Origin: an uncultured Actinomycetota bacterium
Lineage (GTDB): Bacteria > Actinomycetota > Actinomycetes > JAHEKZ01
DNA: 64,000 nucleotides
Direction of reading: 5' to 3'
NCBI GenBank assembly: GCA_963726575.1
Contig: CAVSCR010000005.1
Span: 188,434-252,433, forward strand
Shown: positions 18,088-36,711 of the stretch, piece by piece
Numbering within the stretch: the stretch's first letter is position 1
Layout: every line of letters begins with the position of its first letter
Made by a program: the position numbers and the translations under genes
Notes under the pieces: generated by a model
Databases searched by the model: none
Seen by the model: the letters and a program-made list of their open reading frames with translations, nothing else
Told to the model about the DNA's origin: nothing

Positions 18088-18950
18088 CACGTCCCGACCG
18101 ATGTGCCGCTGTGCTCGGGTCGCCGATCGGGCACTCGTTGTCCCCGCGCCTGCACCGGGCCGCCTACGAATGGCTGGGTCTGTCGTGGACCTATGACGCG
18201 ATCGACGTCACGGCGCAGGCCCTGCCTCAGTTCCTCGCCGGCCTCGGACCGGAGTGGGTCGGGCTGTCGCTGACCATGCCGTTGAAGGAAGCCGTCCTCC
18301 CGTTGCTGGACGAGGTGGAGCCGGCCGCGCTGCTGACGCGAGCGGTCAACACCGTGGTGCTCGAGAGCGGTCGACGTCTCGGCTTCAACACCGACATCGA
18401 CGGCCTCGTCGACGTGCTGCGCCGACATCGCTTCGCGGCCGGCACGCCCGCCCTGGTCCTGGGCGGTGGCGCCACCGCACGCTCGGCCGTGGCCGCGTTG
18501 GCTCGGGTGGGCGTCTCGCGTGTCACTGTGGTGACGCGACGGGAATCCGCCGGTGACGACCTCGTGACGCTCGGCGTCGACCTGGGCCAAGACGTCGTGG
18601 CGCGCGACTGGTCTGAGGTGGCGCCGCTGCTCCACTCGACCGCCGGTGCCGCAGATCTCGTGGTGAGCACCGTGCCCACGGGGGCGACCGACGACCTGGC
18701 GGTGACGGGTCCACTGCCCCCCAATGCCCTGCTCGTGGACGTGCTCTACGAACCGTGGCCGACACCACTCGCGCGGGCCTGGGGCAACGCCGGGGGAACC
18801 GCGGTCGGTGGCCGTGACCTGCTCGTCGGCCAGGCCCTGGAGCAGGTCCGCCTGATGACCGGGGAGCCGGTGCCGGCCGACGTCCTCTGGGCGGCCCTGG
18901 CCGACGGGTCCGGCACCTCAAGACCCTCGGGCGACCCGCCGAAAGAGTGA
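18084..18950 (+). CDS. aroE: Shikimate dehydrogenase
   Basis: AVLGSPIGHSLSPRLH, GLSLTMPLKE, AVNT, NTDIDG, LGGGATARS, LLVGQALEQV.LMTG; ATGA overlap with mltG. Confidence 0.95.
   Translation: MTRPDRCAAVLGSPIGHSLSPRLHRAAYEWLGLSWTYDAIDVTAQALPQFLAGLGPEWVGLSLTMPLKEAVLPLLDEVEPAALLTRAVNTVVLESGRRLGFNTDIDGLVDVLRRHRFAAGTPALVLGGGATARSAVAALARVGVSRVTVVTRRESAGDDLVTLGVDLGQDVVARDWSEVAPLLHSTAGAADLVVSTVPTGATDDLAVTGPLPPNALLVDVLYEPWPTPLARAWGNAGGTAVGGRDLLVGQALEQVRLMTGEPVPADVLWAALADGSGTSRPSGDPPKE
18917..18943 (+). promoter_or_regulatory. Sigma-28/FliA/WhiG-type promoter for the roadblock-DUF4388-GTPase operon (inside the aroE 3' end)
   Basis: CTCA-agaccctcgggcgaccc(17 nt)-GCCGAA, about 90 nt upstream of ATG 19035. 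Confidence 0.75.
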
Positions 18951-19034
18951 CAGGAGTGGGCGCCGTCCGGGCGACCGCTCCGGCGACCATTGGCCAGGCA
19001 GGGGCGGTTCACCACCGCCGCGAGAGGGTGCGTC

Positions 19035-19871
19035 ATGTCCCACGGATACGGGTCCTACGACCAGCAGTACGGCGCGGGTGCCACCGCGGACGGTCCCGGT
19101 CGCTCCGGTCAGCTCGACCGGGTGCTCGCGGACCTGATGGGCCAAGCCCCTGAGGTCGAGGCCGCGGCAGTGGTCTCCTTCGACGGGTTGCCCATGGCGT
19201 CTGCCCTGCCGGCAGGCATGGACGAGGACCGGGTGGCCGCCATGAGCGCGGCTCTGCTGTCACTTGGTGAGCGGGCCGCACAAGGTCTGGGCCGCGGTGA
19301 CCTGAACCAGGTCTACGTGGAGGGCCAGACCGGAACCGTGTTCCTGGTGTCCGCCGACGACGAGGCGGTGCTGGTGGCCGTCGGTGCTCGCGGCGCGAAG
19401 GTCGGTCTGATGCTGTTCGAGGTGCGCCAGGCGGCCGACCGGGTGGCCGCTGTGCTGCGCGAGGTGCCGGTCGTGACCGAGCAGCTCGTCGACGACGTGA
19501 CCAGCGCCGAGCCGCAGGTCGTGGCCGTCCCGCAGGTGGTGCCGGTGGCCGAGGTGCCGGTGGCTGAGGTGCCCGTGGCTGAGGTGCCGGTGGTCGAGGT
19601 GCCCCAGGTGCCCGTGCCCGTGGCCGAGCGCCCCCTGATGGCCCCCATGAACGAGCTGCCCCCGACGCCCGCGCCCATCGAGTCCCTGCCCCCCGTGCCG
19701 GTGCCGGTCGCCGAGACCTCCCTTGACGCGGTCGAGGAACCCGAGGACGACGGCGCCGCGGTGGCGTCGGTGCCGCAGGCCGCGTCCAACGGCAACGGCT
19801 CCCACGGCGCTCCGAACGGGACCTGGCCGGTGTACCCGGCGGCCAACGGGGACTCCTCCTCCTGGTCCTGA
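19035..19871 (+). CDS. Roadblock/LC7 (MglB-like) protein with long acidic Pro/Val-rich C-terminal tail
   Basis: LDRVLADL....PEVEAAAVVSFDGLPMASALP..MDEDRVAAMSAALLSLGERA...LGRG.LNQVYVEG..G.VFL is a Robl_LC7 pattern; ATG 19035 after GAGAGGG. Confidence 0.9.
   Translation: MSHGYGSYDQQYGAGATADGPGRSGQLDRVLADLMGQAPEVEAAAVVSFDGLPMASALPAGMDEDRVAAMSAALLSLGERAAQGLGRGDLNQVYVEGQTGTVFLVSADDEAVLVAVGARGAKVGLMLFEVRQAADRVAAVLREVPVVTEQLVDDVTSAEPQVVAVPQVVPVAEVPVAEVPVAEVPVVEVPQVPVPVAERPLMAPMNELPPTPAPIESLPPVPVPVAETSLDAVEEPEDDGAAVASVPQAASNGNGSHGAPNGTWPVYPAANGDSSSWS
19545..19604 (+). repeat. 4 x 15-nt in-frame tandem repeat (VAEVP/VVEVP) in the roadblock tail
   Basis: gtggccgaggtgccg / gtggctgaggtgccc / gtggctgaggtgccg / gtggtcgaggtgccc. 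Confidence 0.9.
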
Positions 19872-19933: not shown

Positions 19934-21238
19934 ATGGGACCCGACGTGAACCTCGAAGGCTCGCTCGACGCGTTCAGCCTTCCGGACGTCTTCCAGCTGC
20001 TCAGCCTGACGAAGAAGTCCGGGGGACTGCACCTGACCGACGGTCAGGTGCGCGGCGTCGTGTCGTTCCACGAGGGTGCTGTCACGGGGGCGACCGCAGA
20101 TGCCGGGCGCCAGTCGCTGGCCCGACGCCTGGTCGGCATCGGTGTCGTCGACGACGCGGCGCTGCGCCGGGCGGTCGAACGAGCCGCGCACGACCGCGTT
20201 GGTGTGGCCCGGGCACTGGTCGAGGCCGGCGCGGTCGACTCCGAGACGGTGCGCACCTTGGCTGCCGAGCAGACCGTCGACGCCGTCTTCGACCTGCTGC
20301 GCTGGAGCCAGGGTGACTTCGCTTTCGCGCTGGACGAGACCAACCCGAACGACGTCGGGATCGCCCTGCCCGCTGACCAGGTGGTCGCCGAGGCCACCCG
20401 CCGACGCCAGCTGTGGGACTCGGTCTCGAAGGTGATCCCCTCGCCCGACGTCGTGCTGGTGATGCCCGTCGTACTGCCGGCCGATCCGACCGTCACCCGC
20501 GACGAGTGGTCGCTGTTGGCCCTGGTCGACGGAGCCCGCACGGTCGGCGAGCTCGTGGAGCTGAGTGGAGCCGGACAGTTCAGTGTCGTGTCAGCTCTGG
20601 CCGGTCTGGTGCAACGGGGGATGCTGTCGATCAAGGACGAGGATGCGCCGGATCACGTGGTGCTGGTGCTGCGCCGCCAGGTGACGCTGGCCGCGTTGGA
20701 GACCTCGCTGCTGGAGCAGGACGCCCCGACCGACGCCTCCGGGCAGACGCTCACCGGTGAGCCGACGCAGGTCGCGCCGCAGCAGCAGGTGCAGGTGGCG
20801 CCAGCGAACGAGCCAGCCGCCACGGCGCCGCCGACGCCAACACCTGAACCGGCGCAGGTTCGCCAGCCGGCCCCGCCGCCCCTCGACCAACCGTCGGGGC
20901 CGGTCGGACTGACCAAGGCTCCCACGCCCGGGGAGGCAAGCGGCCGCGGCGCCCATCGGCCCGAAGCGGTCGTGCCCGAGCGGCCCGAGCCGTTCCGTCG
21001 GCCCCGCTCTCCGGAGCACCCGGACTCCTTGCCGAACCGACAGTCGGCGTCCGCCCAACCGGTGGCCGCACCGCCGCTGCCGCCGGTCACGTCCTCGGGC
21101 GTACCGGCGAGACCCGCTGGTTCCAGCACGGTCGGGTCGTCGGCGGTAGCCGCGGCGGCGAACCCGGCCATCGAACGTGATCCGAGCGTGAATCGGAGCC
21201 TGCTGCTGAAACTCATCGCCGGGGTCAAGGGGCTGTAG
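19934..21238 (+). CDS. DUF4388 (PATAN-like) domain protein with MshEN-like repeat, Pro-rich linker and C-terminal helix
   Basis: LEGSLDAFSLPDVFQLLSLTKKSGGLHL..G...G.VSFHEGAVTGA N-terminus; VFDLLRWSQGDFAF; EWSLLALVDGARTVGEL winged-helix-like segment; ends RSLLLKLIAGVKGL. Confidence 0.82.
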   Translation: MGPDVNLEGSLDAFSLPDVFQLLSLTKKSGGLHLTDGQVRGVVSFHEGAVTGATADAGRQSLARRLVGIGVVDDAALRRAVERAAHDRVGVARALVEAGAVDSETVRTLAAEQTVDAVFDLLRWSQGDFAFALDETNPNDVGIALPADQVVAEATRRRQLWDSVSKVIPSPDVVLVMPVVLPADPTVTRDEWSLLALVDGARTVGELVELSGAGQFSVVSALAGLVQRGMLSIKDEDAPDHVVLVLRRQVTLAALETSLLEQDAPTDASGQTLTGEPTQVAPQQQVQVAPANEPAATAPPTPTPEPAQVRQPAPPPLDQPSGPVGLTKAPTPGEASGRGAHRPEAVVPERPEPFRRPRSPEHPDSLPNRQSASAQPVAAPPLPPVTSSGVPARPAGSSTVGSSAVAAAANPAIERDPSVNRSLLLKLIAGVKGL

Positions 21239-21240
21239 AG

Positions 21241-21816
21241 ATGGCGACCAACAAGCGACGACGTCACGGTGGCCAAGCCGTCAAGGTGGTGATCACCGGT
21301 CCGTTCGCGGCGGGCAAGACGACGCTGATCCGCACGATCAGCGAGATCACGGTGCTGTCCACCGAGCGGGGGATCACCGACAACACCCGGTCTCGCAAGA
21401 ACGAGACCACCGTGGCCATGGACTTCGGCCGGATCACCATCGACGGCGATCTGGTCCTCTACCTGTTCGGGACACCCGGTCAGGAACGCTTCGACTTCAT
21501 GTGGGAGATCCTCGGCGAGGGCATGCTCGGCTACGTGGTGCTGGTCGACGTCACCCGCGCCGACTCCTTGGCCGAGGCACGAGGCATCCTCGACGCGTTC
21601 CGGCGCATGGCCCGCGTCCCGTTCGTGGTGGGCCTGAACCGTACGGACGGGGACGACGACTCCCAGGAGGCGCAGGTGCGCGAGCACCTCGACCTGGCTG
21701 CCCACATTCCTGTCGTGCCGTGCGACGCGACCGACAAGGAGTCGGTCAAGGCGCTGCTGCTGGCGCTGCTGTACAGCGTTCTCGACGAGATCGAGGCCGA
21801 GCCGGCCACGGTGTAG
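21241..21816 (+). CDS. Small Ras-like ATP/GTP-binding protein (MglA/CvnD-like)
   Basis: VKVVITGPFAAGKTTLI (G1), ETTVAMDFG (G2), LYLFGTPGQERFDFMW (G3 variant), NRTD (G4 variant), CDA. Confidence 0.93.
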   Translation: MATNKRRRHGGQAVKVVITGPFAAGKTTLIRTISEITVLSTERGITDNTRSRKNETTVAMDFGRITIDGDLVLYLFGTPGQERFDFMWEILGEGMLGYVVLVDVTRADSLAEARGILDAFRRMARVPFVVGLNRTDGDDDSQEAQVREHLDLAAHIPVVPCDATDKESVKALLLALLYSVLDEIEAEPATV

Positions 21817-21828
21817 GCGGGTACCTCG

Positions 21829-22038
21829 ATGACGTGGTTCCGCCGTAGCGCTCGGGCTCGCCCCGCGGTCGCGCCGGCCGCCCAGGTGCCGGACTGGTGG
21901 CACGAGCCGGTGGTCCGGCTCACCTTCGCCGATGACTCGGTGGTGACGCTGCCGCCGGGCGACCCTCGTACCCGGGCGTTCACCGCTCTGGCCGACGCCC
22001 TGCGTGGGTCAAGCGGGTCACCCGTCCGGCCGATCTGA
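21829..22038 (+). CDS. Small hypothetical protein (69 aa), last gene of the GTPase module
   Basis: ATG 12 nt after the GTPase stop; MTWFRR...VRLTFADDSVVTLPPGDPRTRAFTALADAL; fills the gap before the next gene. Confidence 0.6.
   Translation: MTWFRRSARARPAVAPAAQVPDWWHEPVVRLTFADDSVVTLPPGDPRTRAFTALADALRGSSGSPVRPI
22008..22034 (+). promoter_or_regulatory. Sigma-28-type promoter for the O-antigen-ligase-like gene (possibly leaderless)
   Basis: GTCA-agcgggtcacccgtccg(17 nt)-GCCGAT; GTG start 10 nt after the -10 hexamer. Confidence 0.6.
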
Positions 22039-22043
22039 TCGAC

Positions 22044-23930
22044 GTGTCCACCCTAGAAGCGCTCGTGCCCCACGGGAGCGCCACGACGCGACGCTCGTGG
22101 TGGCAGCGGGTCGGCGGCGTCGAGGCCCTCGCGGCCGCGCTCGCCCTGCTGGGCTGGGGCATCGTCTTGACGCATGCCACCGGTGGACAGGCTCCCTACA
22201 CGTTGGCTCTGGTCACCGCGTCTGCGCTGCCGTTGCTCTTCGTCAGCGGGGCGGCTCGACGGGTGCCCCTGCGCGCGCTCGCCTTCGTGCTGCTGCCCGG
22301 GGCGGTCGCGCTCGGCCTGAACAGCGTGTCGGCCACCGGCTGGTCGGGACTCGGCGAGGCCGCCGCGTGGTGGTATGCCGCTCTGCTCGGACTCGGCGTC
22401 GTCAGCTACGCACGGACTCCGGCCCGGCGGCAGCTCGTGGCCGCACTGGTGCTGCTGGTCGGCACCGAGCAGATGTACCAGGCCTGGTTCGCCTGGTGGG
22501 GATCCGGCGATCGCCAGGCCCTGATGGTCGGCACCTTCTTCTGGCACAACCCCTTCGCCGCGTTCCAGGCGGCGATCTCGCTGGTGGCGCTCGCGGTCGC
22601 GATGCGGGCGACCGGCTGGCTGCGCCGTCTCGGGCTCGTGCTCGCCCCTTGGTTGGCCGCCGGGGTGTGGCTGTCCGGGAGTCGTGCCGGCCTGGCCCTG
22701 TGGGTGCTGGCGGTCCTGGCCCTCGTGGCCCTCGGGGCACGCACCTGGCGCCAGGCCGCCACGGTTGGCGCCGCATCCGTGGGGTCGCTCGCGCTCGCCT
22801 GGCTGTTGGCCTCACCGGTGCTGATGGGGGGAGCGGCCGGGTCGGGTGGCTCCGGCGTCGGTGCGGCCGGGCGCACGGAGGCGGCTGAGGGCAACTTCTT
22901 GATCCGGCTGGACTACTGGCGGGCCGCGGCGCGGCTGGCCAGCCACCATCTCTGGACCGGTTCCGGGTTCGGCTCGTTCGCCGGGGCCGGAGCCCCGTAC
23001 ATGCCGGCCGACAAGTCGGCCAGCTCTGCGGTGCACAACGGCTGGTTGCAGGCGATGGTCGACGGCGGTCTCGTGCTGGCCCTTCCGGTCATCGCAGTCA
23101 CGGGGTGGCTCGCCATCCGTGCCGTCCGGCGGCTGCTGAGCGCCCGGCATGCCGGCGCCGACCCGGTCGCCATCGGCGCGGCATCCGGGGTCGTGCTCTT
23201 GCTCGCCCACGCCCTCTTCGACCTCGACTGGGCCTACCCGGCACTGCTGGCGCTGTTCGCCGTGCTGGTGGGGCTGCTCCCGTGGCGGTTGCAGGCGGTC
23301 GCCGCCCCCCGGTCGGGGCGCCTCTCCCGCTGGGGGGTCGCCCCAATTCCGGTGGTGGCAGTGCTGGCTGCGGTGGGAGTGCTGACGGTGGGTGCCGCGC
23401 TGGTCGACGGCGCGCAACGGGTGCAGGATCGCCCCGCTGTCGGGTGGCAGCGGGTCGTCGACCAGGTGCTTCCCGTCAGGGCGCTGGCCGCGCGCCTGCC
23501 CAGTGAGTCGCAGCAGATCGCAGTCCTGCTCGCGGCGCGCACGCTGGCGCCGCCGGCGGTTCGCGACGCGCTGGCCCAGACGGTCCGAGCCAGCGCCGAC
23601 GATCCCGTGCTGGCCCAGTACCGGGCATTCGCCATGGTGGCGCTCGGCGACGTCGACGCCGGCCTCGCCGAATCGGCCGCGAGGTATCCGGCCGCTCCTC
23701 GCCCGAAGACCGTGCTGGCCCGCGCCGAGGTGCTGGTGGCCGCCGGCGACACCCGTGGCGCCGTCGACCTCGTCACCCAGGCACTCGGGGCGGCGCAACG
23801 GGCCGGATCGCCGGCTGCGCCTGATCTGGCGCAATGGCTCAGTTTGCATCCCGCTTCTGCCGAAGCCTCTACGCAGGGCGGGGATTCGACCTCGGTGGGG
23901 ACCGACACGTTTGGGGAGGCCACCCGGTGA
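22044..23930 (+). CDS. O-antigen ligase (Wzy_C)-family polytopic membrane protein; candidate pilin oligosaccharyltransferase
   Basis: About 12 hydrophobic segments; GTFFWHNPFAAF, LSGSRAG, IRLDYWRAA, WTGSGFGSF, AVHNGWLQAMVDGGL, LLAHALFD; Ala-rich helical C-terminus. Confidence 0.85.
   Translation: MSTLEALVPHGSATTRRSWWQRVGGVEALAAALALLGWGIVLTHATGGQAPYTLALVTASALPLLFVSGAARRVPLRALAFVLLPGAVALGLNSVSATGWSGLGEAAAWWYAALLGLGVVSYARTPARRQLVAALVLLVGTEQMYQAWFAWWGSGDRQALMVGTFFWHNPFAAFQAAISLVALAVAMRATGWLRRLGLVLAPWLAAGVWLSGSRAGLALWVLAVLALVALGARTWRQAATVGAASVGSLALAWLLASPVLMGGAAGSGGSGVGAAGRTEAAEGNFLIRLDYWRAAARLASHHLWTGSGFGSFAGAGAPYMPADKSASSAVHNGWLQAMVDGGLVLALPVIAVTGWLAIRAVRRLLSARHAGADPVAIGAASGVVLLLAHALFDLDWAYPALLALFAVLVGLLPWRLQAVAAPRSGRLSRWGVAPIPVVAVLAAVGVLTVGAALVDGAQRVQDRPAVGWQRVVDQVLPVRALAARLPSESQQIAVLLAARTLAPPAVRDALAQTVRASADDPVLAQYRAFAMVALGDVDAGLAESAARYPAAPRPKTVLARAEVLVAAGDTRGAVDLVTQALGAAQRAGSPAAPDLAQWLSLHPASAEASTQGGDSTSVGTDTFGEATR
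23838..23864 (+). promoter_or_regulatory. Sigma-28-type promoter for pilB (inside the 3' end of the ligase gene)
   Basis: CTCA-gtttgcatcccgcttct(17 nt)-GCCGAA, 63 nt upstream of GTG 23927. Confidence 0.72.
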
Positions 23931-25669
23931 CGGATGTGGTGCACAACGACGCCTGGACGTCGGATGCCGTGATGTCAGATGTCGCCCGGCAGATGGTGGA
24001 CCTGCTGGTCAACGCCAAGCTGGTCACCCTGGAGCAGGCGCAAGATGCCTACAACGAGTCGCTCACGAGCGGCGAGACGTTGTCCCAGACGCTGGTGCGC
24101 AAGCGCATCGTCACCGAGGCGCAGATCAAGATGGCGCTGTTCAGCCTCGGCGGGCTGGAGGTCGTCGACCTGTCCGACTACTCCGTCGACGGCAGTGTGG
24201 TCGCGCGGGTGTCGGCGTCGTTGTGCCGGACGCACCTCGCCATCCCGATCAAGTTCGACGACGACGGCCGGCTTCTGCTGGCGATGGAGAATCCCTACAA
24301 CGTCCTGGCCATCGACGACATCAAGGCCAATCTCGCGGCCGCTGGGCTGCAGGTGGACATCCACCGCGTGGTCGCGACCAAGGACGACATCCTGGCCGCG
24401 ATCGACAAGTTCTTCCGCGACGACGACCAGCTCGACGACCTCCAGGCCGCGATGGAGAGCGAGGGCGACGACAGCGAGGACCTCTCGTCGCTGAAGGAGG
24501 CGACCGAGGACGCCCCGATCGTCAAGTGGGTCAACGGCGTCATCACGAACGCGATCAGGGATCGCGCCTCCGACATCCACATCGAGCCCGGTGAGCATTA
24601 CCTACGGGTGCGCCAGCGCATCGACGGTGTCCTCCACGACGTCATGCAGTCGAACCGCTCGATCCAGTCCGGCGTGATCTCGCGCCTGAAGATCATGGCC
24701 GACATCAACATTGCCGAGCGCCGCGTGCCGCAGGACGGCCGGCTCTCGGTGGTCGTGAACGGACGCAAGATCGACCTGCGTGTTGCCACGCTTCCCACGG
24801 TGTGGGGCGAGAAGGTCGTCATGCGGGTGCTCGACAACTCCACGGCTCGTCTGGAACTGGCGGACCTCGGCTTCTCCCAGCACAATCACGACTCGTACGG
24901 CGAGAGCTTCACCAAGCCGTACGGCATGATCTTGGTGACCGGCCCGACCGGTTCGGGGAAGTCGACCACGCTCTACGCGACGCTGAACCAGATCGCGCGT
25001 CCCGAGGTGAACGTCATCACCGTCGAGGACCCGGTCGAGTACCGGATCCCGGGCATCAACCAGGTGCAGACGAACGTCAAGGCCGGGCTGACCTTCGCCT
25101 CGGCGTTGCGCTCCATCCTTCGCTCGGACCCCGACATCGTTCTGATCGGTGAGATCCGCGACCACGAGACCGCCCAGATCGCGGTCGAGGCCGCCCTCAC
25201 CGGTCACCTCGTGCTGTCGACGCTGCACACCAACGACGCTCCTTCGTCGATCACCCGGTTGGTCGAGATGGGACTGGAACCGTTCCTGGTCGGTTCTGCG
25301 CTCGACTGTGTGCTTGCCCAGCGGCTCGCGCGGCGACTGTGCGAGAAGTGCCGGGAGGAGTACGTGCCGACTCCGGAGCAACTGGCCTCGGCCCGCTACC
25401 CGTGGCACGACGGCGAGCCCCTGCCGACGCTGTTTCGTCCCATCGGCTGCTCCAACTGCTCCAAGACCGGCTACAAGGGGCGGCTCGCTCTGCACGAGGT
25501 GATGCAGGTGTCGGAGCGGATCGAGCGAATGGCCGTGGAGCGTGAGTCAGCCGCCCGGATCATGACAGCCGCCAAGGAGGAGGGCATGTTGACGCTGCGC
25601 GAGGACGGCATGTCGAAAGTCGCCGAGGGCGTGACGTCGATCGACGAGATCCTCCGCGTGGTCGTCTAG
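23927..25669 (+). CDS. pilB: Type IV pilus extension ATPase PilB (GspE/PulE family)
   Basis: ASDIHIEP, DINIAERRVPQDGR, GPTGSGKSTTLY, TVEDPVE, LRSDPDIVLIGEIRD, GHLVLSTLHTND, Zn motifs LCEKC...GCSNCSKTGYKGR; GTG after GGGGAGG. Confidence 0.96.
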   Translation: MTDVVHNDAWTSDAVMSDVARQMVDLLVNAKLVTLEQAQDAYNESLTSGETLSQTLVRKRIVTEAQIKMALFSLGGLEVVDLSDYSVDGSVVARVSASLCRTHLAIPIKFDDDGRLLLAMENPYNVLAIDDIKANLAAAGLQVDIHRVVATKDDILAAIDKFFRDDDQLDDLQAAMESEGDDSEDLSSLKEATEDAPIVKWVNGVITNAIRDRASDIHIEPGEHYLRVRQRIDGVLHDVMQSNRSIQSGVISRLKIMADINIAERRVPQDGRLSVVVNGRKIDLRVATLPTVWGEKVVMRVLDNSTARLELADLGFSQHNHDSYGESFTKPYGMILVTGPTGSGKSTTLYATLNQIARPEVNVITVEDPVEYRIPGINQVQTNVKAGLTFASALRSILRSDPDIVLIGEIRDHETAQIAVEAALTGHLVLSTLHTNDAPSSITRLVEMGLEPFLVGSALDCVLAQRLARRLCEKCREEYVPTPEQLASARYPWHDGEPLPTLFRPIGCSNCSKTGYKGRLALHEVMQVSERIERMAVERESAARIMTAAKEEGMLTLREDGMSKVAEGVTSIDEILRVVV

Positions 25670-25712: not shown

Positions 25713-25739
25713 CTCAAGGGGTGACGCCCTCGCGCCGAT
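25713..25739 (+). promoter_or_regulatory. Sigma-28-type promoter for pilT-pilC
   Basis: CTCA-aggggtgacgccctcgc(17 nt)-GCCGAT in the pilB-pilT intergenic region. Confidence 0.78.
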
Positions 25740-25814: not shown

Positions 25815-27619
25815 GTGGAGACCTCGGGATACCGCAACCCTGCGCCTTCTCCGGACGCCCCTGCTGAGCCGAACGCGGCTCCAGCCACCGACTACGGCTT
25901 CTTCGCGCCCGCACCCGCCGTGGTGCCGGCCGACGGTGCCACTGAACCCGCCCCGGAACCTGCCCCGGAACCCACCGTCTCGGCCACCGACGAGGTGGTC
26001 CACGAGTCCGTGACCGAGCCGACGGTCGAGCCGGCAGTCGAGCCGCGGCGACCGAGCCGGCGTACGAGCCGGCCCTGGCGGTACCCGCACCTGAGGCGGA
26101 ACCCGCGCCCGAACCTGCGCCCGAACCTGCGCCCGAACCTGTTGTGCAGTCGCCCGCCGAGGTCGCACCCACCTTGGTCGAAGAGGCAACGCCCGAGGCG
26201 GCCGAGGGCCTGCCCATGTCCCTCGCCATCGCTGCGCAGGAGGCCGCCGAGGTCGACCTGAGCCAGCCGGTCGAGCCGGCCGGCGTGGACTACTCCGGCT
26301 TCAACGGCTTGGGTGACGCGCCGCAGACGAGCGACGTGCTGACTGACGCACCCGCGGAGTCGGGCCTGGAGGGCAGCTATGACGCCGGCTACGACAGCGC
26401 GTTGACGGCGCCCACGGAGTCCACCTACGAAGCGGGGTACGACGCGGGCTTCGAGACTGCGGTTCTCGCCGAGGAGGCCGGCGTCGGCCTGGCCGACTCC
26501 GAGGCCGAGGAGTCGGCCTACCACCGTCGTACCACCGAGGTCTCGGCGAGTGACGACATCATCCTGGTCGACCTGCTGCTCGAGGTGCTGAACCGTAAGG
26601 CGTCCGACCTTCACCTGAGCGCCGGAGCCCGGCCGATGATCCGGGTCAACGGCGAGCTGGAGCAGCTCGACGACCAGCCCGTCCTGACCCCGCCGGTGAT
26701 CCAGCGCGTCATGTACGCGTCCATCACCCAGCGGCAGCGAGAGAAGTTCGAGGAGAACCTCGAGCTCGACTTCGCCTACTCCGTCCCGGGCCGGGCCCGG
26801 TTCCGCGTCAACATGTACCGGCAGCGCGACGCCGTCGGTGCTGCGTTCCGGTTGATCCCGTTCGAGATCAGGCGGCTCGAGGACCTCGGCGTACCACCGC
26901 AGGTGGCGAACTTCTCGATGCTGCCCCGTGGATTCGTCCTGGTGACAGGCCCCACCGGTTCTGGCAAGTCCACGACGCTGGCGTCGCTGCTCGACCTGGC
27001 GAACCGGAACCGCAAAGACCACATCATGACGGTCGAGGACCCGATCGAGTTCCTCCACCGGCACCAGTCGTGCCTGGTCAACCAGCGCGAGGTGGGGGAG
27101 GACACGTGGTCCTTCCAGAACGCACTGAAGCATGTGCTGCGGCAAGACCCCGACATCATCCTGGTCGGCGAAATGCGTGACCTGGAGACGATCTCGGTGG
27201 CGTTGACCGCGGCCGAGACCGGCCACCTGGTGTACGCGACCCTGCACACGCAGGATGCGGCGCAGACGATCGACCGCGTGATCGACGTGTTCCCGCCGCA
27301 CCAGCAGCAGCAGATCCGCGCGCAGCTGGCGACGTCGATCCAAGGCGTTGTCTGCCAGACGCTGGCGCGCAGCGCCGACGGCCGTGGCCGCGTCGTTGCC
27401 TGCGAGGTGCTGGTGGCGACACCGGCGGTTCGCAACCTGATCCGCGAAGGAAAGACCCACCAGATCTACAGCGCGATGCAGGCCGGCGGGAAGTTCGGCA
27501 TGCAGACCATGGACCAGCACCTCGCGGAGCTGGTGAACAAGGGCCGGATCAACTACGACACCGGCCTGGAGAAGTGCCACCACATCGAGGACTTCAACCG
27601 GCTCACCGGTCGGATCTGA
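25815..27619 (+). CDS. pilT: Type IV pilus retraction ATPase PilT with long acidic N-terminal extension; apparent 1-nt frameshift near 26043-26045
   Basis: Intact core ASDLHLSAG, RFRVNMYRQR, GPTGSGKSTTL, TVEDPIE, LRQDPDIILVGEMRD, TGHLVYATLHT, AVRNLIREGK. The Pro/Glu-rich leader starts at GTG 25815 (SD GAGGGAGG) and changes frame at gagccgcggcg. An alternative ATG at 26216 has a GAGGG SD. Confidence 0.92.
26105..26140 (+). repeat. 3 x 12-nt perfect tandem repeat (APEP) in the PilT leader
   Basis: gcgcccgaacct x3. Confidence 0.92.
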
Positions 27620-27630
27620 GGGGCTGACTC

Positions 27631-28851
27631 ATGGCAACGACCACCTACCAGTACTCCGTCCGAGACAAGGCCGGCAAGGTCTTCACGGGCACCATCGAGG
27701 CGGACTCCGAAGCCGCGGTGGCACAGAAGCTGAAGAGCATGGGCTACGCGCCCATGTCGATCGGCCAGCACAAGCCTGGCCTGGGTCGCGACCTCGCCAT
27801 CCCGGGGTTCGGGCCGAAGGTGAAGCTGAAGGACCTGGCCGTGATGTCGCGACAGTTCGCGACGATGATCAACTCCGGCCTGTCGCTGATGCGGGCGCTG
27901 AGCATCCTGGCCGAGCAGACGCCGAACAAGAAGCTTGGCCCGGTGCTGGCTGAGGTGCGCAACGAGGTCGAGACCGGCCAGGCGTTGTCGTCCGCGCTTG
28001 CGCTGCACGACGACGTCTTCCCGCCCCTGATGATCAACATGGTGCGTGCCGGCGAGGTCGGCGGCTTCCTCGACCAGGTGCTGCTGCAGGTCGCGGCGAA
28101 CTACGAGGCCGAGGTCAGGCTGCGCGGAAAGATCAAGTCGGCCATGACCTACCCGGTCGTGGTGTTCTGCATCGCCATGCTCGCGGTGACCGGCATGTTG
28201 CTGTTCATCGTCCCCGTGTTCGCGAAGATGTTCCAGAGCCTTGGCGCCAAGCTGCCGATGGCGACCCAGGTCCTGGTGAACCTCTCACACTTCCTGAAGA
28301 CCTGCTTCCCGCTGATCATCATCGCTGCCATCGTCGCGATGGTGCTGTGGAAGAAGTTCAAGCGCGACGAGCGCGTGCGCAACGTGGTCGACCCGCTGAA
28401 GCTGAAGATCCCGGTCTTCGGTGCGTTGTTCCAGAAGATCGCCATCAGCCGGTTCACGCGCAACTTCGGCACCATGCTGCACGCCGGTGTCCCGATCCTG
28501 CAGAGCCTCGACATCGTGGCCGACACCTCAGGCAACGTCGTCGTGGCCCACGCGGTCCGCGACGTCCAGGAGAGTGTGCGTAACGGTGAGTCGTTGACCG
28601 CGCCCCTGGCGAACCACGCGATCTTCCCGCCCATGGTGGTGCAGATGATGTCGGTCGGTGAGGACACCGGGGCGCTCGACTCGATGCTGCACAAGATCAG
28701 TGACTTCTACGACCAGGAGGTCGAGGCGACCACGGAGTCGTTGACCTCCCTGATCGAGCCTTTGATGATCGCGGTGCTCGGCGGCCTGGTCGGGGCGATG
28801 ATCATCGCCCTGTACATGCCGATCTTCAGCATCTTCAACCTGATCAAGTAG
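27631..28851 (+). CDS. pilC: Type IV pilus platform protein PilC (T2SSF family)
   Basis: YQYSVRD..GK...G.IEA, DLAVMSRQFATMINSGL, MVRAGEVGGFL, RFTRNFGTML.AGVPI, GEDTGALDSML.KISDFY, LIEPLMI. Confidence 0.97.
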   Translation: MATTTYQYSVRDKAGKVFTGTIEADSEAAVAQKLKSMGYAPMSIGQHKPGLGRDLAIPGFGPKVKLKDLAVMSRQFATMINSGLSLMRALSILAEQTPNKKLGPVLAEVRNEVETGQALSSALALHDDVFPPLMINMVRAGEVGGFLDQVLLQVAANYEAEVRLRGKIKSAMTYPVVVFCIAMLAVTGMLLFIVPVFAKMFQSLGAKLPMATQVLVNLSHFLKTCFPLIIIAAIVAMVLWKKFKRDERVRNVVDPLKLKIPVFGALFQKIAISRFTRNFGTMLHAGVPILQSLDIVADTSGNVVVAHAVRDVQESVRNGESLTAPLANHAIFPPMVVQMMSVGEDTGALDSMLHKISDFYDQEVEATTESLTSLIEPLMIAVLGGLVGAMIIALYMPIFSIFNLIK

Positions 28852-28863
28852 TCCGACCCGACC

Positions 28864-28905
28864 CGACCAGGCCCGGTCGTCCCGCGGGACGACCGGGCCT
28901 GGTCG
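28864..28905 (+). terminator. Perfect ~19-bp hairpin after pilC
   Basis: cgaccaggcccggtcgtcc-cgcg-ggacgaccgggcctggtcg. Confidence 0.8.
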
Positions 28906-28943
28906 TTCGTGATCCTTCCGTGACCTGATCACCCGGGCCGATG

Positions 28944-28970
28944 CTCAAGTCGTCTTCCGCCGGGGCCGAA
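28944..28970 (+). promoter_or_regulatory. Sigma-28-type promoter for the riboswitch-major pilin transcript
   Basis: CTCA-agtcgtcttccgccggg(17 nt)-GCCGAA(AA), about 20 nt upstream of the aptamer. Confidence 0.8.
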
Positions 28971-28990
28971 AACCCCTAGGTCAAGAGCCA

Positions 28991-29076
28991 TCCGGCCAGA
29001 AACGGCACTCCCGTCGTAAGGCGGGGTCGCAAAGCCAGGGGACCCAAGCCGGTCAGCCCAGCTACCTCGGTCCGGA
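28991..29076 (+). ncRNA. Cyclic di-GMP-I (GEMM) riboswitch in the major pilin 5' UTR
   Basis: GGCAC, stem CCCGTC/GGCGGG capped by a GNRA loop (GTAA), conserved GCAAAG junction, second stem GACC..GGTC, then GCTACC; matches the recalled c-di-GMP-I consensus. Boundaries approximate. Confidence 0.85.
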
Positions 29077-29142
29077 TCCCTCCGGGGGTCCTAGAGGCGA
29101 CAAGCCGGCGGCTCACCGGTTCGTCCGAAAGGGCAACAGCTG

Positions 29143-29583
29143 ATGCTCGCACGAATTCGCAAGGCGATGGACGAGCGTGAAGAGGGCTTCACCCTCATCG
29201 AGCTCCTCGTCGTCATCATCATCATCGGTATTCTGGCCGCGATTGCGATCCCGGTCTTCCTGAACCAGCGCAAGAAGGCAGTCGACGCCTCGATGAAGTC
29301 CGACTCCCGGACGATCGCCAACGAGGAAGAGACCTACTTCACTGACTACCAGGCCTACGTTGCCACGAGCGGCTCCGCGCCGGTCATTGGTGCCACCACG
29401 GTCCGGTTGTCCACCGGTAACACCGCCACGATCACGCTGAACACTGCTACTTCGGCGTACTGCATCCTGATGGACCGTGTGGCGGGCGCCCAGCCCGGCA
29501 CCCAGAAGTGGGTCTACATCAGCAGCCAGGGCGGCCTCCAGGCAACTGGCACCGTCGCCTGCCCGGCAGCGGGTTCCTTCTAG
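29143..29583 (+). CDS. pilA: Major type IVa pilin (PilA-like)
   Basis: Class III signal MLARIRKAMDEREEG/FTLIELLVVIIIIGILAAIAIPVFLNQRKK with Glu5; C-terminal Cys pair; has its own promoter, riboswitch and terminator. Confidence 0.92.
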   Translation: MLARIRKAMDEREEGFTLIELLVVIIIIGILAAIAIPVFLNQRKKAVDASMKSDSRTIANEEETYFTDYQAYVATSGSAPVIGATTVRLSTGNTATITLNTATSAYCILMDRVAGAQPGTQKWVYISSQGGLQATGTVACPAAGSF

Positions 29584-29598
29584 TCCAGATCGCAGCTC

Positions 29599-29649
29599 GA
29601 AACGGCGGGAGCCGGTGCCCCTGCGGCACCGGCTCCCGTCCGCCGTTTC
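29599..29649 (+). terminator. Hairpin after the major pilin
   Basis: 14-bp perfect stem cgggagccggtgcc-cctgc-ggcaccggctcccg, with outer complementary arms gaaacggcgg/ccgccgtttc. Confidence 0.8.
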
Positions 29650-29766
29650 CAGACGCGCTGACTGGCTAGCCCGATCGGGCTCCGTCAATCGGCGCAACAG
29701 GGGCGACGCGAGCCACGTCGATACCGACAGCGCACCCATTGCTAAAGAAGGACTTGAGGAGGACAG

Positions 29767-30222
29767 ATGCCACCCCGGGACGACTTCCGGGGCCAGGGGG
29801 AGCTGGACTCACCCGACACAGGATTCACCCTGATCGAGTTGCTCGTCGTCATCATCATCATTGGCATCCTGGCGGCAATCGCGATCCCGGTGTACCTGAA
29901 CCAGAGGCAGCGGGCCTATGACGCCGCAGCCAAGTCGGACATCCGCAACCTGGCCCAGTTCGAAGAGACCTACCTGGTCAGCTACGGCACGTACGGTTCG
30001 TTCACGGACCTGGCCGGCAACTCGCTGTCGGTGACGGCGACGCGCAAAGTGACGCTGACGATCAGCTACATCGGCGGCACCGGGTTCTGCCTCACCGGCA
30101 AGAACGCGATGTCCCCGACGACGTGGTACTACGACAGCCAAGCCGGTGGTCTGCAACCCACCGGGAGCGGCAGCTGTCCGATCTCGACGGGCGGCACCAG
30201 CGGCGGAAGCCTGACCGGTTGA
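29767..30222 (+). CDS. Second type IVa pilin (PilA paralogue)
   Basis: SD GAGGAGG; leader ...DSPDTG/FTLIELLVVIIIIGILAAIAIPVYLNQR; FCLTG...WYYDS..GGLQ...SC, same layout as the first pilin. Confidence 0.9.
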   Translation: MPPRDDFRGQGELDSPDTGFTLIELLVVIIIIGILAAIAIPVYLNQRQRAYDAAAKSDIRNLAQFEETYLVSYGTYGSFTDLAGNSLSVTATRKVTLTISYIGGTGFCLTGKNAMSPTTWYYDSQAGGLQPTGSGSCPISTGGTSGGSLTG

Positions 30223-30320: not shown

Positions 30321-30347
30321 CTCAAGACGGCCTCAGACGATGCCGAT
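30321..30347 (+). promoter_or_regulatory. Sigma-28-type promoter for the minor pilin operon (possibly leaderless)
   Basis: CTCA-agacggcctcagacgat(17 nt)-GCCGAT; ATG 30357 is 10 nt downstream. Confidence 0.78.
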
Positions 30348-34198: not shown

Positions 34199-34225
34199 CT
34201 CAAGCCCAGGCAAAGTCGCTCCGAT
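34199..34225 (+). promoter_or_regulatory. Sigma-28-type promoter for pilMNOP
   Basis: CTCA-agcccaggcaaagtcgc(17 nt)-TCCGAT (one mismatch to GCCGAT), in the pilX-pilM intergenic region. Confidence 0.68.
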
Positions 34226-34298
34226 GCCTTCCTTTGACATGGCCCGAATGGGCTCACCCACGCGGCCTAGCCGCGGATACGGTGAAGGGAAGATCGCA

Positions 34299-35363
34299 GT
34301 GGCTGCACGAACCGCCATCGGTCTCGACATCGGCACCTCGGGGGTGCGGGCCGCAGAGCTTGCCTTTGGCAAGAGCGGCATCACGCTGGAGAAGTTCGGG
34401 CAGGTCGCCCTCCCCGAAGGCGTCGTCAGGGACGGCGAAGTCTTCGACCCCGACGCCGTCACAGAGGCCATCAAGCAGTTGTGGGCGCACACCAAGTTCG
34501 CCAGCAAGAAGGTCGTCATCGGTGTCGCCAACCAGAAGGTGATCGTCCGCCAGGTCGACCTTCCCTGGGCGCCCCTGGACGAGCTGAAGGGCTCGCTGGG
34601 GTTCCTGGTGCAGGACACGATCCCGATGCCGGTCGAGAGCGCGCTGCTGGACTTCTACCCGCTGGAGGACCTCACCGGTGACGGTGGCGTCAAGATGGTG
34701 CGCGGCCTGCTGGTCGCCGCATCGCGGGAGATGGTCTCCTCGCACCTCAGCGCGGTCCAGAAGGCCGGCCTGCAGCCCGAGATGGTCGACCTGACCGCCT
34801 TCGCCGTGCTGCGCGCGCTGGCCGACATGGATGACGTGGGCATGGGCGGACAGCTCGAGGCCCTCGTCGACGTCGGCGCCCGGGTCACCAACGTCATCGT
34901 GCACGAAGGCGGCGTTCCCCGGTTCGTCCGCATCCTGCTCATGGGCGGTCAAGACGTCACCGAAGCGGTCGTCGACCGCGCCGGCGTCTCCTCCGCCCAA
35001 GCCACCGCGCTGAAGCAGGAGATCGGCATGCAGGCCACGGGAGCGACCATGGAGGCGCAAGCCGCCGGACGCGTCATGGACGCAGCCGGCCAGGCCTTCG
35101 TGGACCAGGTTCGTGGCTCGCTCGACTACTACACCGCCTCGAGCGGCTCGCAGCCGTTGTCCCGGCTGGTCCTCACCGGTGGTGGCTCGCGACTGATCGG
35201 CCTGGCCGAGCGGCTCGCGCAAGCCACCCGGGTCCCCGTCGTTCCCGGCAACCCGTTCGCTGACCTGACGGTCGGCAAGACCGGGTTGTCGCCGGAGCAA
35301 CTCACATTCGTCGAGCCACTGGCCTCCGTGCCGGTCGGTCTTGCCCTGGGGGTGGCGTCGTGA
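34299..35363 (+). CDS. pilM: Type IV pilus assembly protein PilM
   Basis: AIGLDIGTSGVRAAEL, KKVVIGVANQKVIVRQVDLP, ALVDVGARVTNV, QVRGSLDYY, LTGGGSRL; GTG after GAAGGGA. Confidence 0.95.
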   Translation: MAARTAIGLDIGTSGVRAAELAFGKSGITLEKFGQVALPEGVVRDGEVFDPDAVTEAIKQLWAHTKFASKKVVIGVANQKVIVRQVDLPWAPLDELKGSLGFLVQDTIPMPVESALLDFYPLEDLTGDGGVKMVRGLLVAASREMVSSHLSAVQKAGLQPEMVDLTAFAVLRALADMDDVGMGGQLEALVDVGARVTNVIVHEGGVPRFVRILLMGGQDVTEAVVDRAGVSSAQATALKQEIGMQATGATMEAQAAGRVMDAAGQAFVDQVRGSLDYYTASSGSQPLSRLVLTGGGSRLIGLAERLAQATRVPVVPGNPFADLTVGKTGLSPEQLTFVEPLASVPVGLALGVAS

Positions 35364-36042: not shown

Positions 36043-36711
36043 ATGACCCGCAGCCGACAGTGGACCCTCGGTGCCGTTGCGATCGTGGTTGTGATCGCAC
36101 TGGCCGGATGGTTCCTCCTCGTGCAGGCCGAGCGTAAGCACGCTGCCTCGCTCAACCTGCAGACTGCCCAGCAGCTCAAGACCAACCAGGGGCTCCAGGC
36201 GCAGATCGCCATGCTGAAGGCGCAGAGCAAGAACCTGCCTCAGATGGAGGCCAGCCTGGCCAAGGTCAGGACCAGCATCCCGGTGGCATCTGAGATGCCG
36301 CAGCTGATCCGCCAGCTCACGGACGCCGCGAACGCCTCTGGCGTCACGCTGCGCTCCCTGATGCCGGCCGACCCGGTCTCGGTCACGCCGACCTCGTCGG
36401 AGACCGGTGGGGTCGTCCTGCCTCCTGGCCAGCTGGCGATCGTCAACCTGAAGCTGGAGTTCGACGGCAACTTCTTCGAGACCGAAGAGTTCATGAGCCG
36501 GCTCGAGAAGATGCCGCGGGCGATCCTCACCAGCTCGCTGCAGCTCGCCTCGCAGTCGGACACCAACCAGCTGCACGGTGTGATCCAGGCTCGTGTGTTC
36601 TTCGCACCGCAGGAACTGCCGGTGACGTCGGAGATCCCGGGCGTCACTCCTCCGGCACCCGTCTCGTCCCCGGCAGCTTCTTCCACGGCCGCCCCGACCA
36701 CGGTCCAGTAG
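36043..36711 (+). CDS. pilO: Type IV pilus assembly protein PilO
   Basis: TM helix, coiled coil, IP...EMPQLIRQL..AA..SGV.L, FFETEEFM.RLEKMPR. Confidence 0.9.
   Translation: MTRSRQWTLGAVAIVVVIALAGWFLLVQAERKHAASLNLQTAQQLKTNQGLQAQIAMLKAQSKNLPQMEASLAKVRTSIPVASEMPQLIRQLTDAANASGVTLRSLMPADPVSVTPTSSETGGVVLPPGQLAIVNLKLEFDGNFFETEEFMSRLEKMPRAILTSSLQLASQSDTNQLHGVIQARVFFAPQELPVTSEIPGVTPPAPVSSPAASSTAAPTTVQ

Follow-up and report, generated by a model that had tools for sequence, protein, structure and literature searches.

In an uncultured Actinomycetota bacterium (GenBank assembly GCA_963726575.1, contig CAVSCR010000005.1), pilA, the gene of the major type IV pilin, very probably carries a genuine cis-acting riboswitch of the c-di-GMP-I class (c-di-GMP, cyclic di-guanosine monophosphate; the class is also called GEMM) behind a promoter of the WhiG/sigma-28 family. 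'The window' denotes the whole stretch of DNA that was analysed, 64,000 nucleotides (nt) of the forward strand (contig positions 188,434 to 252,433; 69% G+C); positions are counted from its first letter and feature coordinates are collected in Table 1. The pilA leader sits inside a type IV pilus cluster that is flanked by aroE and aroC. In the arrangement proposed here, pilA would form an insulated, monocistronic mRNA whose promoter belongs to the WhiG/sigma-28 family and is one of five that would organise the pilus cluster, and pilin synthesis would require an active WhiG-family sigma factor and then the opening of a c-di-GMP gate.

A first-pass annotation, made from the sequence alone, had placed a GEMM-type aptamer between the promoter and pilA, and a covariance-model search against Rfam bears this out: the c-di-GMP-I family RF01051 matches 28994-29069 of the forward strand over the full model (1-87), scoring 49.3 bits where the gathering score is 35 (E 1.3e-6). 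This is the sole riboswitch match in an Rfam scan of the 64 kb, the only other match being a tRNA, and class II c-di-GMP riboswitches have no match at gathering score anywhere in the window. A clade-specific covariance model, described below, gives the pilA-leader site 87 bits and detects no other copy within the window. The GGC variant family (RF03167) was considered and rejected, as RF01051 is the best family at the site. The first hairpin reads GC / ACU / CCCGUC-GUAA-GGCGGG / GUC / GC, that is, stems of 2 and 6 base pairs (bp) separated by an internal loop of 3 nt and closed off by a GNRA-type loop, which is how the first hairpin of GEMM has been described (PMC1950547). In a 22-sequence alignment of related aptamers, 100% of the cells of this hairpin are paired and 3 of its pairs are compensatory; P2, whose stem varies in length, comprises 12 pairs, 6 of them changed on both sides, with 92.8% of cells paired; and the AAA linker is invariant (AGA in one relative, L054). 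The equivalents of the ligand-contact bases G20, A47 and C92 are likewise invariant, with G at position 20 in 24 of 24 aptamers. In the structure of the Vc2 riboswitch one of the ligand's guanines is recognised by G20 and the other is paired to C92, and relatives that sense cyclic GMP-AMP (cGAMP) have A at position 20 (PMC6140456). Because that position is G in all 24 aptamers, c-di-GMP and not cGAMP is the ligand expected from family membership. A47, a further contact in the Vc2 structure, was assigned to its column by comparison with the GGC variant model.

From one scan of representative genomes with pilC as anchor, 80 related loci were drawn (designated by L numbers), from Sporichthyaceae, Motilibacteraceae, Frankiaceae, Kineosporiaceae, Nanopelagicales and unclassified Actinomycetota metagenome-assembled genomes, together with isolates of Kineococcus, Cellulomonas and Actinotalea; the N-terminus of pilA is common to more than 70 related loci, and close PilC homologues are numerous in metagenomes. 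Among the first 20 loci, 15 have a c-di-GMP-I aptamer at the Rfam gathering score just 3' of pilC, at the same position. As RNAalifold mispaired the junction when applied to the aptamer alignment, the Rfam architecture was imposed for the clade covariance model, which matches 23 of the 80 loci and the window with 75-101 bits; the 23 loci span several families. In 22 of them the aptamer lies 130-170 nt 5' of a major-pilin-type ATG, and in the remaining one (L022) the pilin is present and was missed by the stricter pattern. Pairing holds in 93.4% of cells across the 22-sequence alignment and drops to 26-44% once the 3' partners are slid, and 10 pairs carry changes on both sides; none of 500 shuffles reached values as high as those observed. 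Some loci hold several major-pilin-type paralogues of which one only stands behind an aptamer, namely L019 (starts 4454, 5098, 5763, 6450 and 7153), L037 (4548 and 5767) and L054 (4422 and 5798, the later gene being the one preceded by the aptamer), and in these c-di-GMP may choose between pilin variants.

The sigma-28 promoter named in the first-pass annotation also stands, at a phylogenetically conserved site. It matches exactly the consensus used to predict WhiG1 and WhiG2 regulons in actinobacteria (-35 XT(C/A)AX, 16 nt, -10 GCCGA; PMC13595943), a criterion that also asks for a promoter within 200 bp of the start codon; here the -10 begins 178 nt 5' of the ATG at 29143, and transcription would start near 28978-28980, a WhiG-family start being expected 7-9 nt past the -10. 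The strict consensus occurs 40-260 nt 5' of 62 of 88 major-pilin-type genes (81 sequences), where the chance level of 0.10 matches per 220-nt search window corresponds to about 9 of the 88, and most of the pilin genes that lack it have a spacer off by one base or TTAAG at -35. The site is kept 5' of pilin genes with and without an aptamer. The shorter motif GCCGAWAA was rejected as promoter evidence when taken alone, with 1 found against 0.96 expected and hence no rarer than chance. The longer motif TCAAG-N15-GCCGA occurs 5 times in the window against 0.10 expected (no more than 1 copy in any of 100 shuffles), always on the forward strand and within the pilus cluster, and only the copy at pilA is then followed by an aptamer. 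Judged by sequence, the assignment of a sigma-28/WhiG-type promoter to pilA is well supported, and the entire pilus cluster looks like a WhiG/sigma-28 regulon. Because it is bracketed by two very strong hairpins, neither of which has a U tract, pilA would form an insulated monocistronic unit with its own promoter, the upstream hairpin being predicted to shield it from read-through.

Counted from the predicted start, the pilA leader is about 164 nt long, and two partly competing pairings of its 5' end can be drawn. The outer stem P0 encloses the aptamer: 90% of its cells are paired in the 20 long leaders, against 13-46% with the partner slid, and a short-leader subgroup has GACCGC/GCGGUC in its place. 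Just 5' of the 3' strand of P0 lies a segment, here called anti-P1, that extends P0 and can pair by complementarity with the outer part of P1's 5' strand; the two change sequence together, the segment being GCCGG (29104-29108) in the window and GCCG, CCGUGG, GCCGAA or GUCGG in other subgroups, and in every leader the element that it forms with the P0 3' strand ends 18-31 nt 5' of the AUG. An unrestricted search for 5'/3' duplexes is non-specific in such GC-rich RNA (z about -0.8), and the 5' element was limited to 18 nt. With the anti-P1 extension, P0 has a duplex energy of -19.7 kcal/mol in the window against -12.9 kcal/mol for P1, and it is the stronger in 24 of 24 leaders (means -18.9 and -11.0 kcal/mol). 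Whole leaders forced into the aptamer or the anti-P1 state have near-equal energies (means -79 and -81 kcal/mol), the behaviour expected of a bistable RNA tipped by its ligand. Hairpin H1, which the first-pass annotation had already described as lacking a U tract, is found as described; in the window it competes with P1 for the GGAU at 29074-29077, and the long leaders have a hairpin of unrelated sequence at its position. Without ligand, the anti-P1 element would pair with the leader's 5' end, lengthening P0 and capturing the outer half of P1's 5' strand; once c-di-GMP is bound, P1 would close and the anti-P1 extension would be displaced.

The output of such a switch would be translation initiation, by way of a small hairpin on the Shine-Dalgarno sequence. 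This hairpin, GTCC-GAAA-GGGC in the first-pass annotation, does form in the local fold and covers the likely Shine-Dalgarno sequence GAAAGGG, 9 nt 5' of the ATG at 29143; judged by eye, hairpins of a pyrimidine run, a 4-5-nt loop and the Shine-Dalgarno sequence occur in most related leaders. A terminator scan found 0 intrinsic terminator sites in 28700-29800. With no terminator present and the Shine-Dalgarno sequence under a hairpin, translation is the most likely output, and it is preferred with moderate confidence to one based on Rho or on decay. The earlier proposal of translational control has gained from these two observations, without a consistent direction emerging from the folding: there is a weak lean, scarcely beyond even, towards an ON switch in which c-di-GMP exposes the ribosome-binding site. 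Thermodynamic prediction of ON or OFF was rejected, since folds left unconstrained and folds with the aptamer forced likewise differ by no consistent change at the Shine-Dalgarno sequence or AUG. Hand-built OFF models for L001-L006/L010, in which a GCGAGC segment is complementary to AUGCUCGC, were distrusted.

Several observations count against a riboswitch of this design. Binding of ligand by the pilA-leader aptamer is read from its family membership. The P0 core covaries only modestly, with 2 double changes among 20 sequences, and it is compatible with P1 and also present where there is no aptamer; only a 3-6-bp extension truly competes with P1. The Shine-Dalgarno hairpin is weak (4 bp). When the aptamer-forced and anti-P1-forced states are compared, predicted accessibility of the Shine-Dalgarno sequence is higher in the bound (aptamer-forced) state for 10 leaders and lower for 6 (means 0.49 and 0.46), and the corresponding split for the whole ribosome-binding site is 7 to 10. 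Hand-built models were distrusted for a similar disagreement, giving ON for L016/17, L008/14/18 and the window and the opposite for other subgroups.

Table 1. Features of the pilA leader and its surroundings in the window (positions from the first letter of the window).
Feature	Position	Strand	Details
WhiG/sigma-28-type promoter of pilA	28944-28972	+	-35 CTCAA 28944-28948; 16-nt spacer; -10 GCCGA 28965-28969
Extended -10	to 28972	+	GCCGAAAA
P0, 5' strand	28985-28989	+	GAGCC; 5-7 nt from predicted 5' end; pairs with 29110-29114 (GGCUC)
P1, 5' strand	28990-28999	+	AUCCGGCCAG; 28992-28996 (CCGGC) can pair instead with 29104-29108
c-di-GMP-I aptamer	28994-29069	+	Rfam alignment and covariation
Ligand-contact equivalents	29004, 29031, 29065	+	G20, A47 and C92, respectively
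P1a/P1b hairpin	29005-29030	+	GUAA loop; Rfam alignment
AAA linker	29031-29033	+	Rfam alignment; GCAAAGCC in the window
P2 hairpin	29033-29063	+	Rfam alignment
P1, 3' strand	29066-29077	+	CUCGGUCCGGAU; shares GGAU (29074-29077) with H1
Hairpin H1	29074-29091	+	GGAUCCC-UCCG-GGGGUCC; -13.9 kcal/mol; no U tract
Anti-P1 / P0, 3' strand	29104-29114	+	GCCGG-C-GGCUC; pairs with 28985-28996
Small hairpin	29123-29134	+	GUCC-GAAA-GGGC; local fold; covers likely Shine-Dalgarno sequence GAAAGGG 29127-29133
pilA, major type IV pilin	29143-29583	+	MLARIRKAMDEREEG followed by FTLIELLVV...; Pfam N_methyl PF07963, E 1e-7
Hairpin 3' of pilA stop	29599-29649	+	-42.9 kcal/mol; z -7.95
Inverted repeat 3' of pilC stop	28864-28905	+	perfect, 21+21 nt, 100% complementary; -45.1 kcal/mol; z -7.9; terminator-like
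TCAAG-N15-GCCGA copy	18918-18942	+	5' of Roadblock/LC7 (MglB-like) gene
TCAAG-N15-GCCGA copy	22009-22033	+	5' of Wzy_C-like gene and pilB
TCAAG-N15-GCCGA copy	25714-25738	+	gap between pilB and pilT-like gene
TCAAG-N15-GCCGA copy	28945-28969	+	5' of pilA
TCAAG-N15-GCCGA copy	30322-30346	+	just 5' of minor pilin (ATG 30357/30399, ...AGLTMIEV...)
Roadblock/LC7 (MglB-like) protein	18990-19871	+	
DUF4388 protein	19934-21238	+	
Small Ras-like GTPase (MglA-like)	21241-21816	+	
Wzy_C-like membrane protein	22044-23930	+	heads pilB operon
pilB	23834-25669	+	Pfam
pilT-like ATPase	26144-27619		
pilC, T2SSF platform protein	27631-28851	+	gene 5' of the leader; Pfam PF00482, E 7e-67
Additional pilin-like genes	starts 29767, 30123, 31304		
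pilM	34224-35363		
PilO-like gene	36043-36711		

Other explanations of the aptamer and its output can be set against this evidence. That the match arose by chance, or is a decaying relic without function, is hardly credible: the single-sequence fold of the aptamer region is unremarkable (z -1.8) and its minimum-energy fold is not the GEMM fold, but the score exceeds the gathering score, and the comparative data (23 loci in several families, the same position, compensatory changes and invariant ligand-site bases) contradict such a reading. It is very unlikely that the ligand is a different dinucleotide, for instance 3',3'-cGAMP, given G in place of the A of the cGAMP switches and an invariant C92 equivalent, or that the aptamer is a member of one of the variant classes (GGC or UAU) whose specificity is altered. 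For the latter speaks the aptamer of L003 (4297-4381), which lies just above the gathering score of RF03167 (c-di-GMP-I-GGC; 59.7 against 59 bits), yet has A at the A47 column where the defining G of that class should stand; it is a canonical aptamer that happens to fit P1 of the variant model, which can capture canonical aptamers. Less remote, and still rather unlikely, is an output other than at the ribosome, whereby the switch would govern termination, either by Rho or without a U tract at H1, or else the stability of the mRNA by way of the 5'-terminal stem P0. The near-equal accessibility predicted for the ribosome-binding site in the two states is in its favour, as are the place of H1 directly 3' of P1, with a 4-nt overlap, and that of P0, which begins 5-7 nt from the predicted 5' end, a place at which stem-loops are known to shield mRNAs; it has to contend with the missing U tract after H1, with the conservation of the hairpin over the Shine-Dalgarno sequence, and with the want of direct support for a role of Rho or of an RNase.

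Whether c-di-GMP acts on pilA once or twice depends on the sigma factor. Homologues of WhiG in Actinomycetota comprise WhiG1, which is linked to flagellar clusters and which the anti-sigma factor RsiG does not bind, and WhiG2, which RsiG binds together with c-di-GMP, and the two recognise similar promoters (PMC13595943); pilus genes are under WhiG-like sigmas both where RsiG is present, as in Rubrobacter, and where it is missing, as in Actinoplanes (PMC8325347). The RsiG switch calls for a WhiG2-clade sigma that has equivalents of K57, G61 and R62. Were the sigma of the WhiG2 type, sequestered by RsiG at high c-di-GMP, the messenger would act on transcription and on the leader RNA alike, with coherent double repression as the outcome if the riboswitch is OFF and a band-pass or pulse if it is ON. 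The promoter fits the WhiG consensus, and homologues of RsiG are on record in Kineococcus radiotolerans, Cellulomonas gilvus, Acidothermus cellulolyticus and Cryptosporangium aurantiacum; because these are relatives of the organisms in the locus set, RsiG is plausible in the lineage. We nevertheless give two-layer control clearly less than even chances, since RsiG binds only one of two sigmas with similar promoters, the pilus genes of Actinoplanes are driven by WhiG-like sigmas without any RsiG, and many of the relatives belong to motile genera, which makes the presence of a flagellar WhiG1 likely. A motif scan of the window yielded no sigma gene, nor did one appear among the open reading frames scanned against Pfam, a subset of those in the window, and the RsiG motif E(X)3S(X)2R(X)3[QH](X)3D occurs in none of the window's six frames; because neither is there, two-layer control is offered as a conditional hypothesis. 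Within it, control of opposite sign, with transcription stopped at high c-di-GMP by RsiG holding WhiG2 and translation in need of c-di-GMP at the riboswitch, is quite unlikely.

The single-input alternative, to which we would give chances only a little short of even, is a flagellar-type sigma (WhiG1/FliA) that is insensitive to c-di-GMP, which would leave the riboswitch as the only c-di-GMP sensor on pilA; pilin would be made only while the motility or dispersal programme is on, and then gated by c-di-GMP. The same type of promoter stands at aptamer-less loci of Cellulomonas, Kineococcus, Actinotalea and Motilibacter, WhiG1 and flagellar clusters are found together, and Actinoplanes offers a precedent; furthermore, an aptamer inserted later into an existing WhiG-driven leader fits the gain of a c-di-GMP input that had been missing. 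Against this, some relatives do have RsiG, and the sigma is not identifiable from the window.

Leaders with and without an aptamer suggest how the arrangement arose. Between the -10 and the ATG lie 61-92 nt in 38 of 43 leaders without an aptamer (the five outliers have 108-230 nt) and 161-203 nt in loci with one, and the pair of P0 motifs is kept in 17 of 38 leaders without an aptamer. From this we infer that an insertion of about 100 nt brought the aptamer into P0, an older 5' stem-loop driven by WhiG, at its inner hairpin. In aptamer-less leaders of Kineococcus (L050, L053, L055, L062, L064, L065, L069, L072, L075, L076) and others, a 5' stem GAGCCGC...GCGGCUC surrounds a plain hairpin, and the same leaders have a GAGCA...UGCUC hairpin that joins the Shine-Dalgarno sequence to the start codon. 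The sequences of these leaders suggest an older layer of post-transcriptional pilin control that would be independent of c-di-GMP.

Each half of the arrangement has known counterparts. GEMM was tied to pilM, pilO, pilQ and pulF as early as 2007 (PMC1950547), and the c-di-GMP-I riboswitches of Vibrio cholerae (Vc2) and of Geobacter pilus genes share with the pilA leader the two-hairpin fold, the GNRA-type loop, the AAA linker and G20/A47/C92, and likewise a 5' regulatory position at a gene for a surface appendage. Here, by contrast, a high-GC actinobacterium is the host, no terminator is present, a WhiG/sigma-28-type promoter precedes the leader, and the aptamer is nested in P0, an older stem of the leader, and followed by an anti-P1 strand some 30 nt downstream. 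On the promoter side, the WhiG/FliA pilus promoters of Rubrobacter radiotolerans (with RsiG) and Actinoplanes missouriensis (without) have the same consensus, and several WhiG promoters in one pilus cluster are also on record, three in R. radiotolerans (PMC8325347) against five here. Pilus sites for WhiG have been predicted in Cellulomonadaceae, Cryptosporangiaceae and others; PMC13595943 and PMC8325347 contain no mention of a riboswitch in those pilus leaders. The first-pass annotation erred in citing c-di-GMP-I riboswitches as regulators of pilin genes in Clostridioides difficile: the switch at the pilus cluster there is of class II, with a different fold, and works as an ON switch by transcription termination, whereas class I lies 5' of the flgB operon (PMC11477304). 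The likeness that does hold is that c-di-GMP acts on pilin through a leader RNA, and that a c-di-GMP riboswitch and a sigma-28-family factor share one circuit (PMC11477304); in C. difficile the class I riboswitch lies 5' of an operon that contains sigD, whereas here a sigma-28-type promoter lies 5' of the riboswitch. A full-text literature search for c-di-GMP riboswitches with pilin or type IV pili in actinobacteria returned nothing relevant, and, although riboswitch class and promoter type are both known, no report of the two on one gene was found; absence from such a search is not proof.

Some neighbouring genes merit mention in their own right. Directly 5' of the pilus genes, and after one WhiG-type promoter, stand genes for a Roadblock/LC7 protein, a DUF4388 protein and a Ras-like GTPase, which may constitute an actinobacterial polarity module that serves pilus-based motility. 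The Wzy_C (O-antigen-ligase-like) protein at the head of the pilB operon may be a pilin glycosylation enzyme. A third layer of c-di-GMP control, through the MshEN domain of PilB (Pfam, residues about 50-110), was considered and rejected, as the glycines of the motif RLGxxLLxxG(L/I) are replaced.

The literature on c-di-GMP in Actinomycetota centres on protein effectors, for example BldD and RsiG-WhiG. The pilA leader would add to these a conserved RNA sensor for c-di-GMP on the mRNA of the major pilin, in a group of mostly uncultured actinobacteria, and would place it within the regulon of a sigma family that c-di-GMP can itself control, making a concrete case of sigma-factor logic and riboswitch logic on a single gene. 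If the sigma proves to be under RsiG, this would be, to our knowledge, the first known case of a single gene on which c-di-GMP acts twice, at the initiation of transcription and at the leader RNA. Should the two layers moreover be of opposite sign, pilin would be made only at intermediate or rising c-di-GMP, and the insertion of an aptamer into a WhiG-dependent leader would have given birth to a natural incoherent gate, a band-pass or pulse, run by a single messenger. The leader is also an apparently clear example of riboswitch gain through insertion into a pre-existing stem-loop, and relatives with and without the aptamer in homologous leaders, among which L019, L037 and L054 combine both, provide a natural comparison set.

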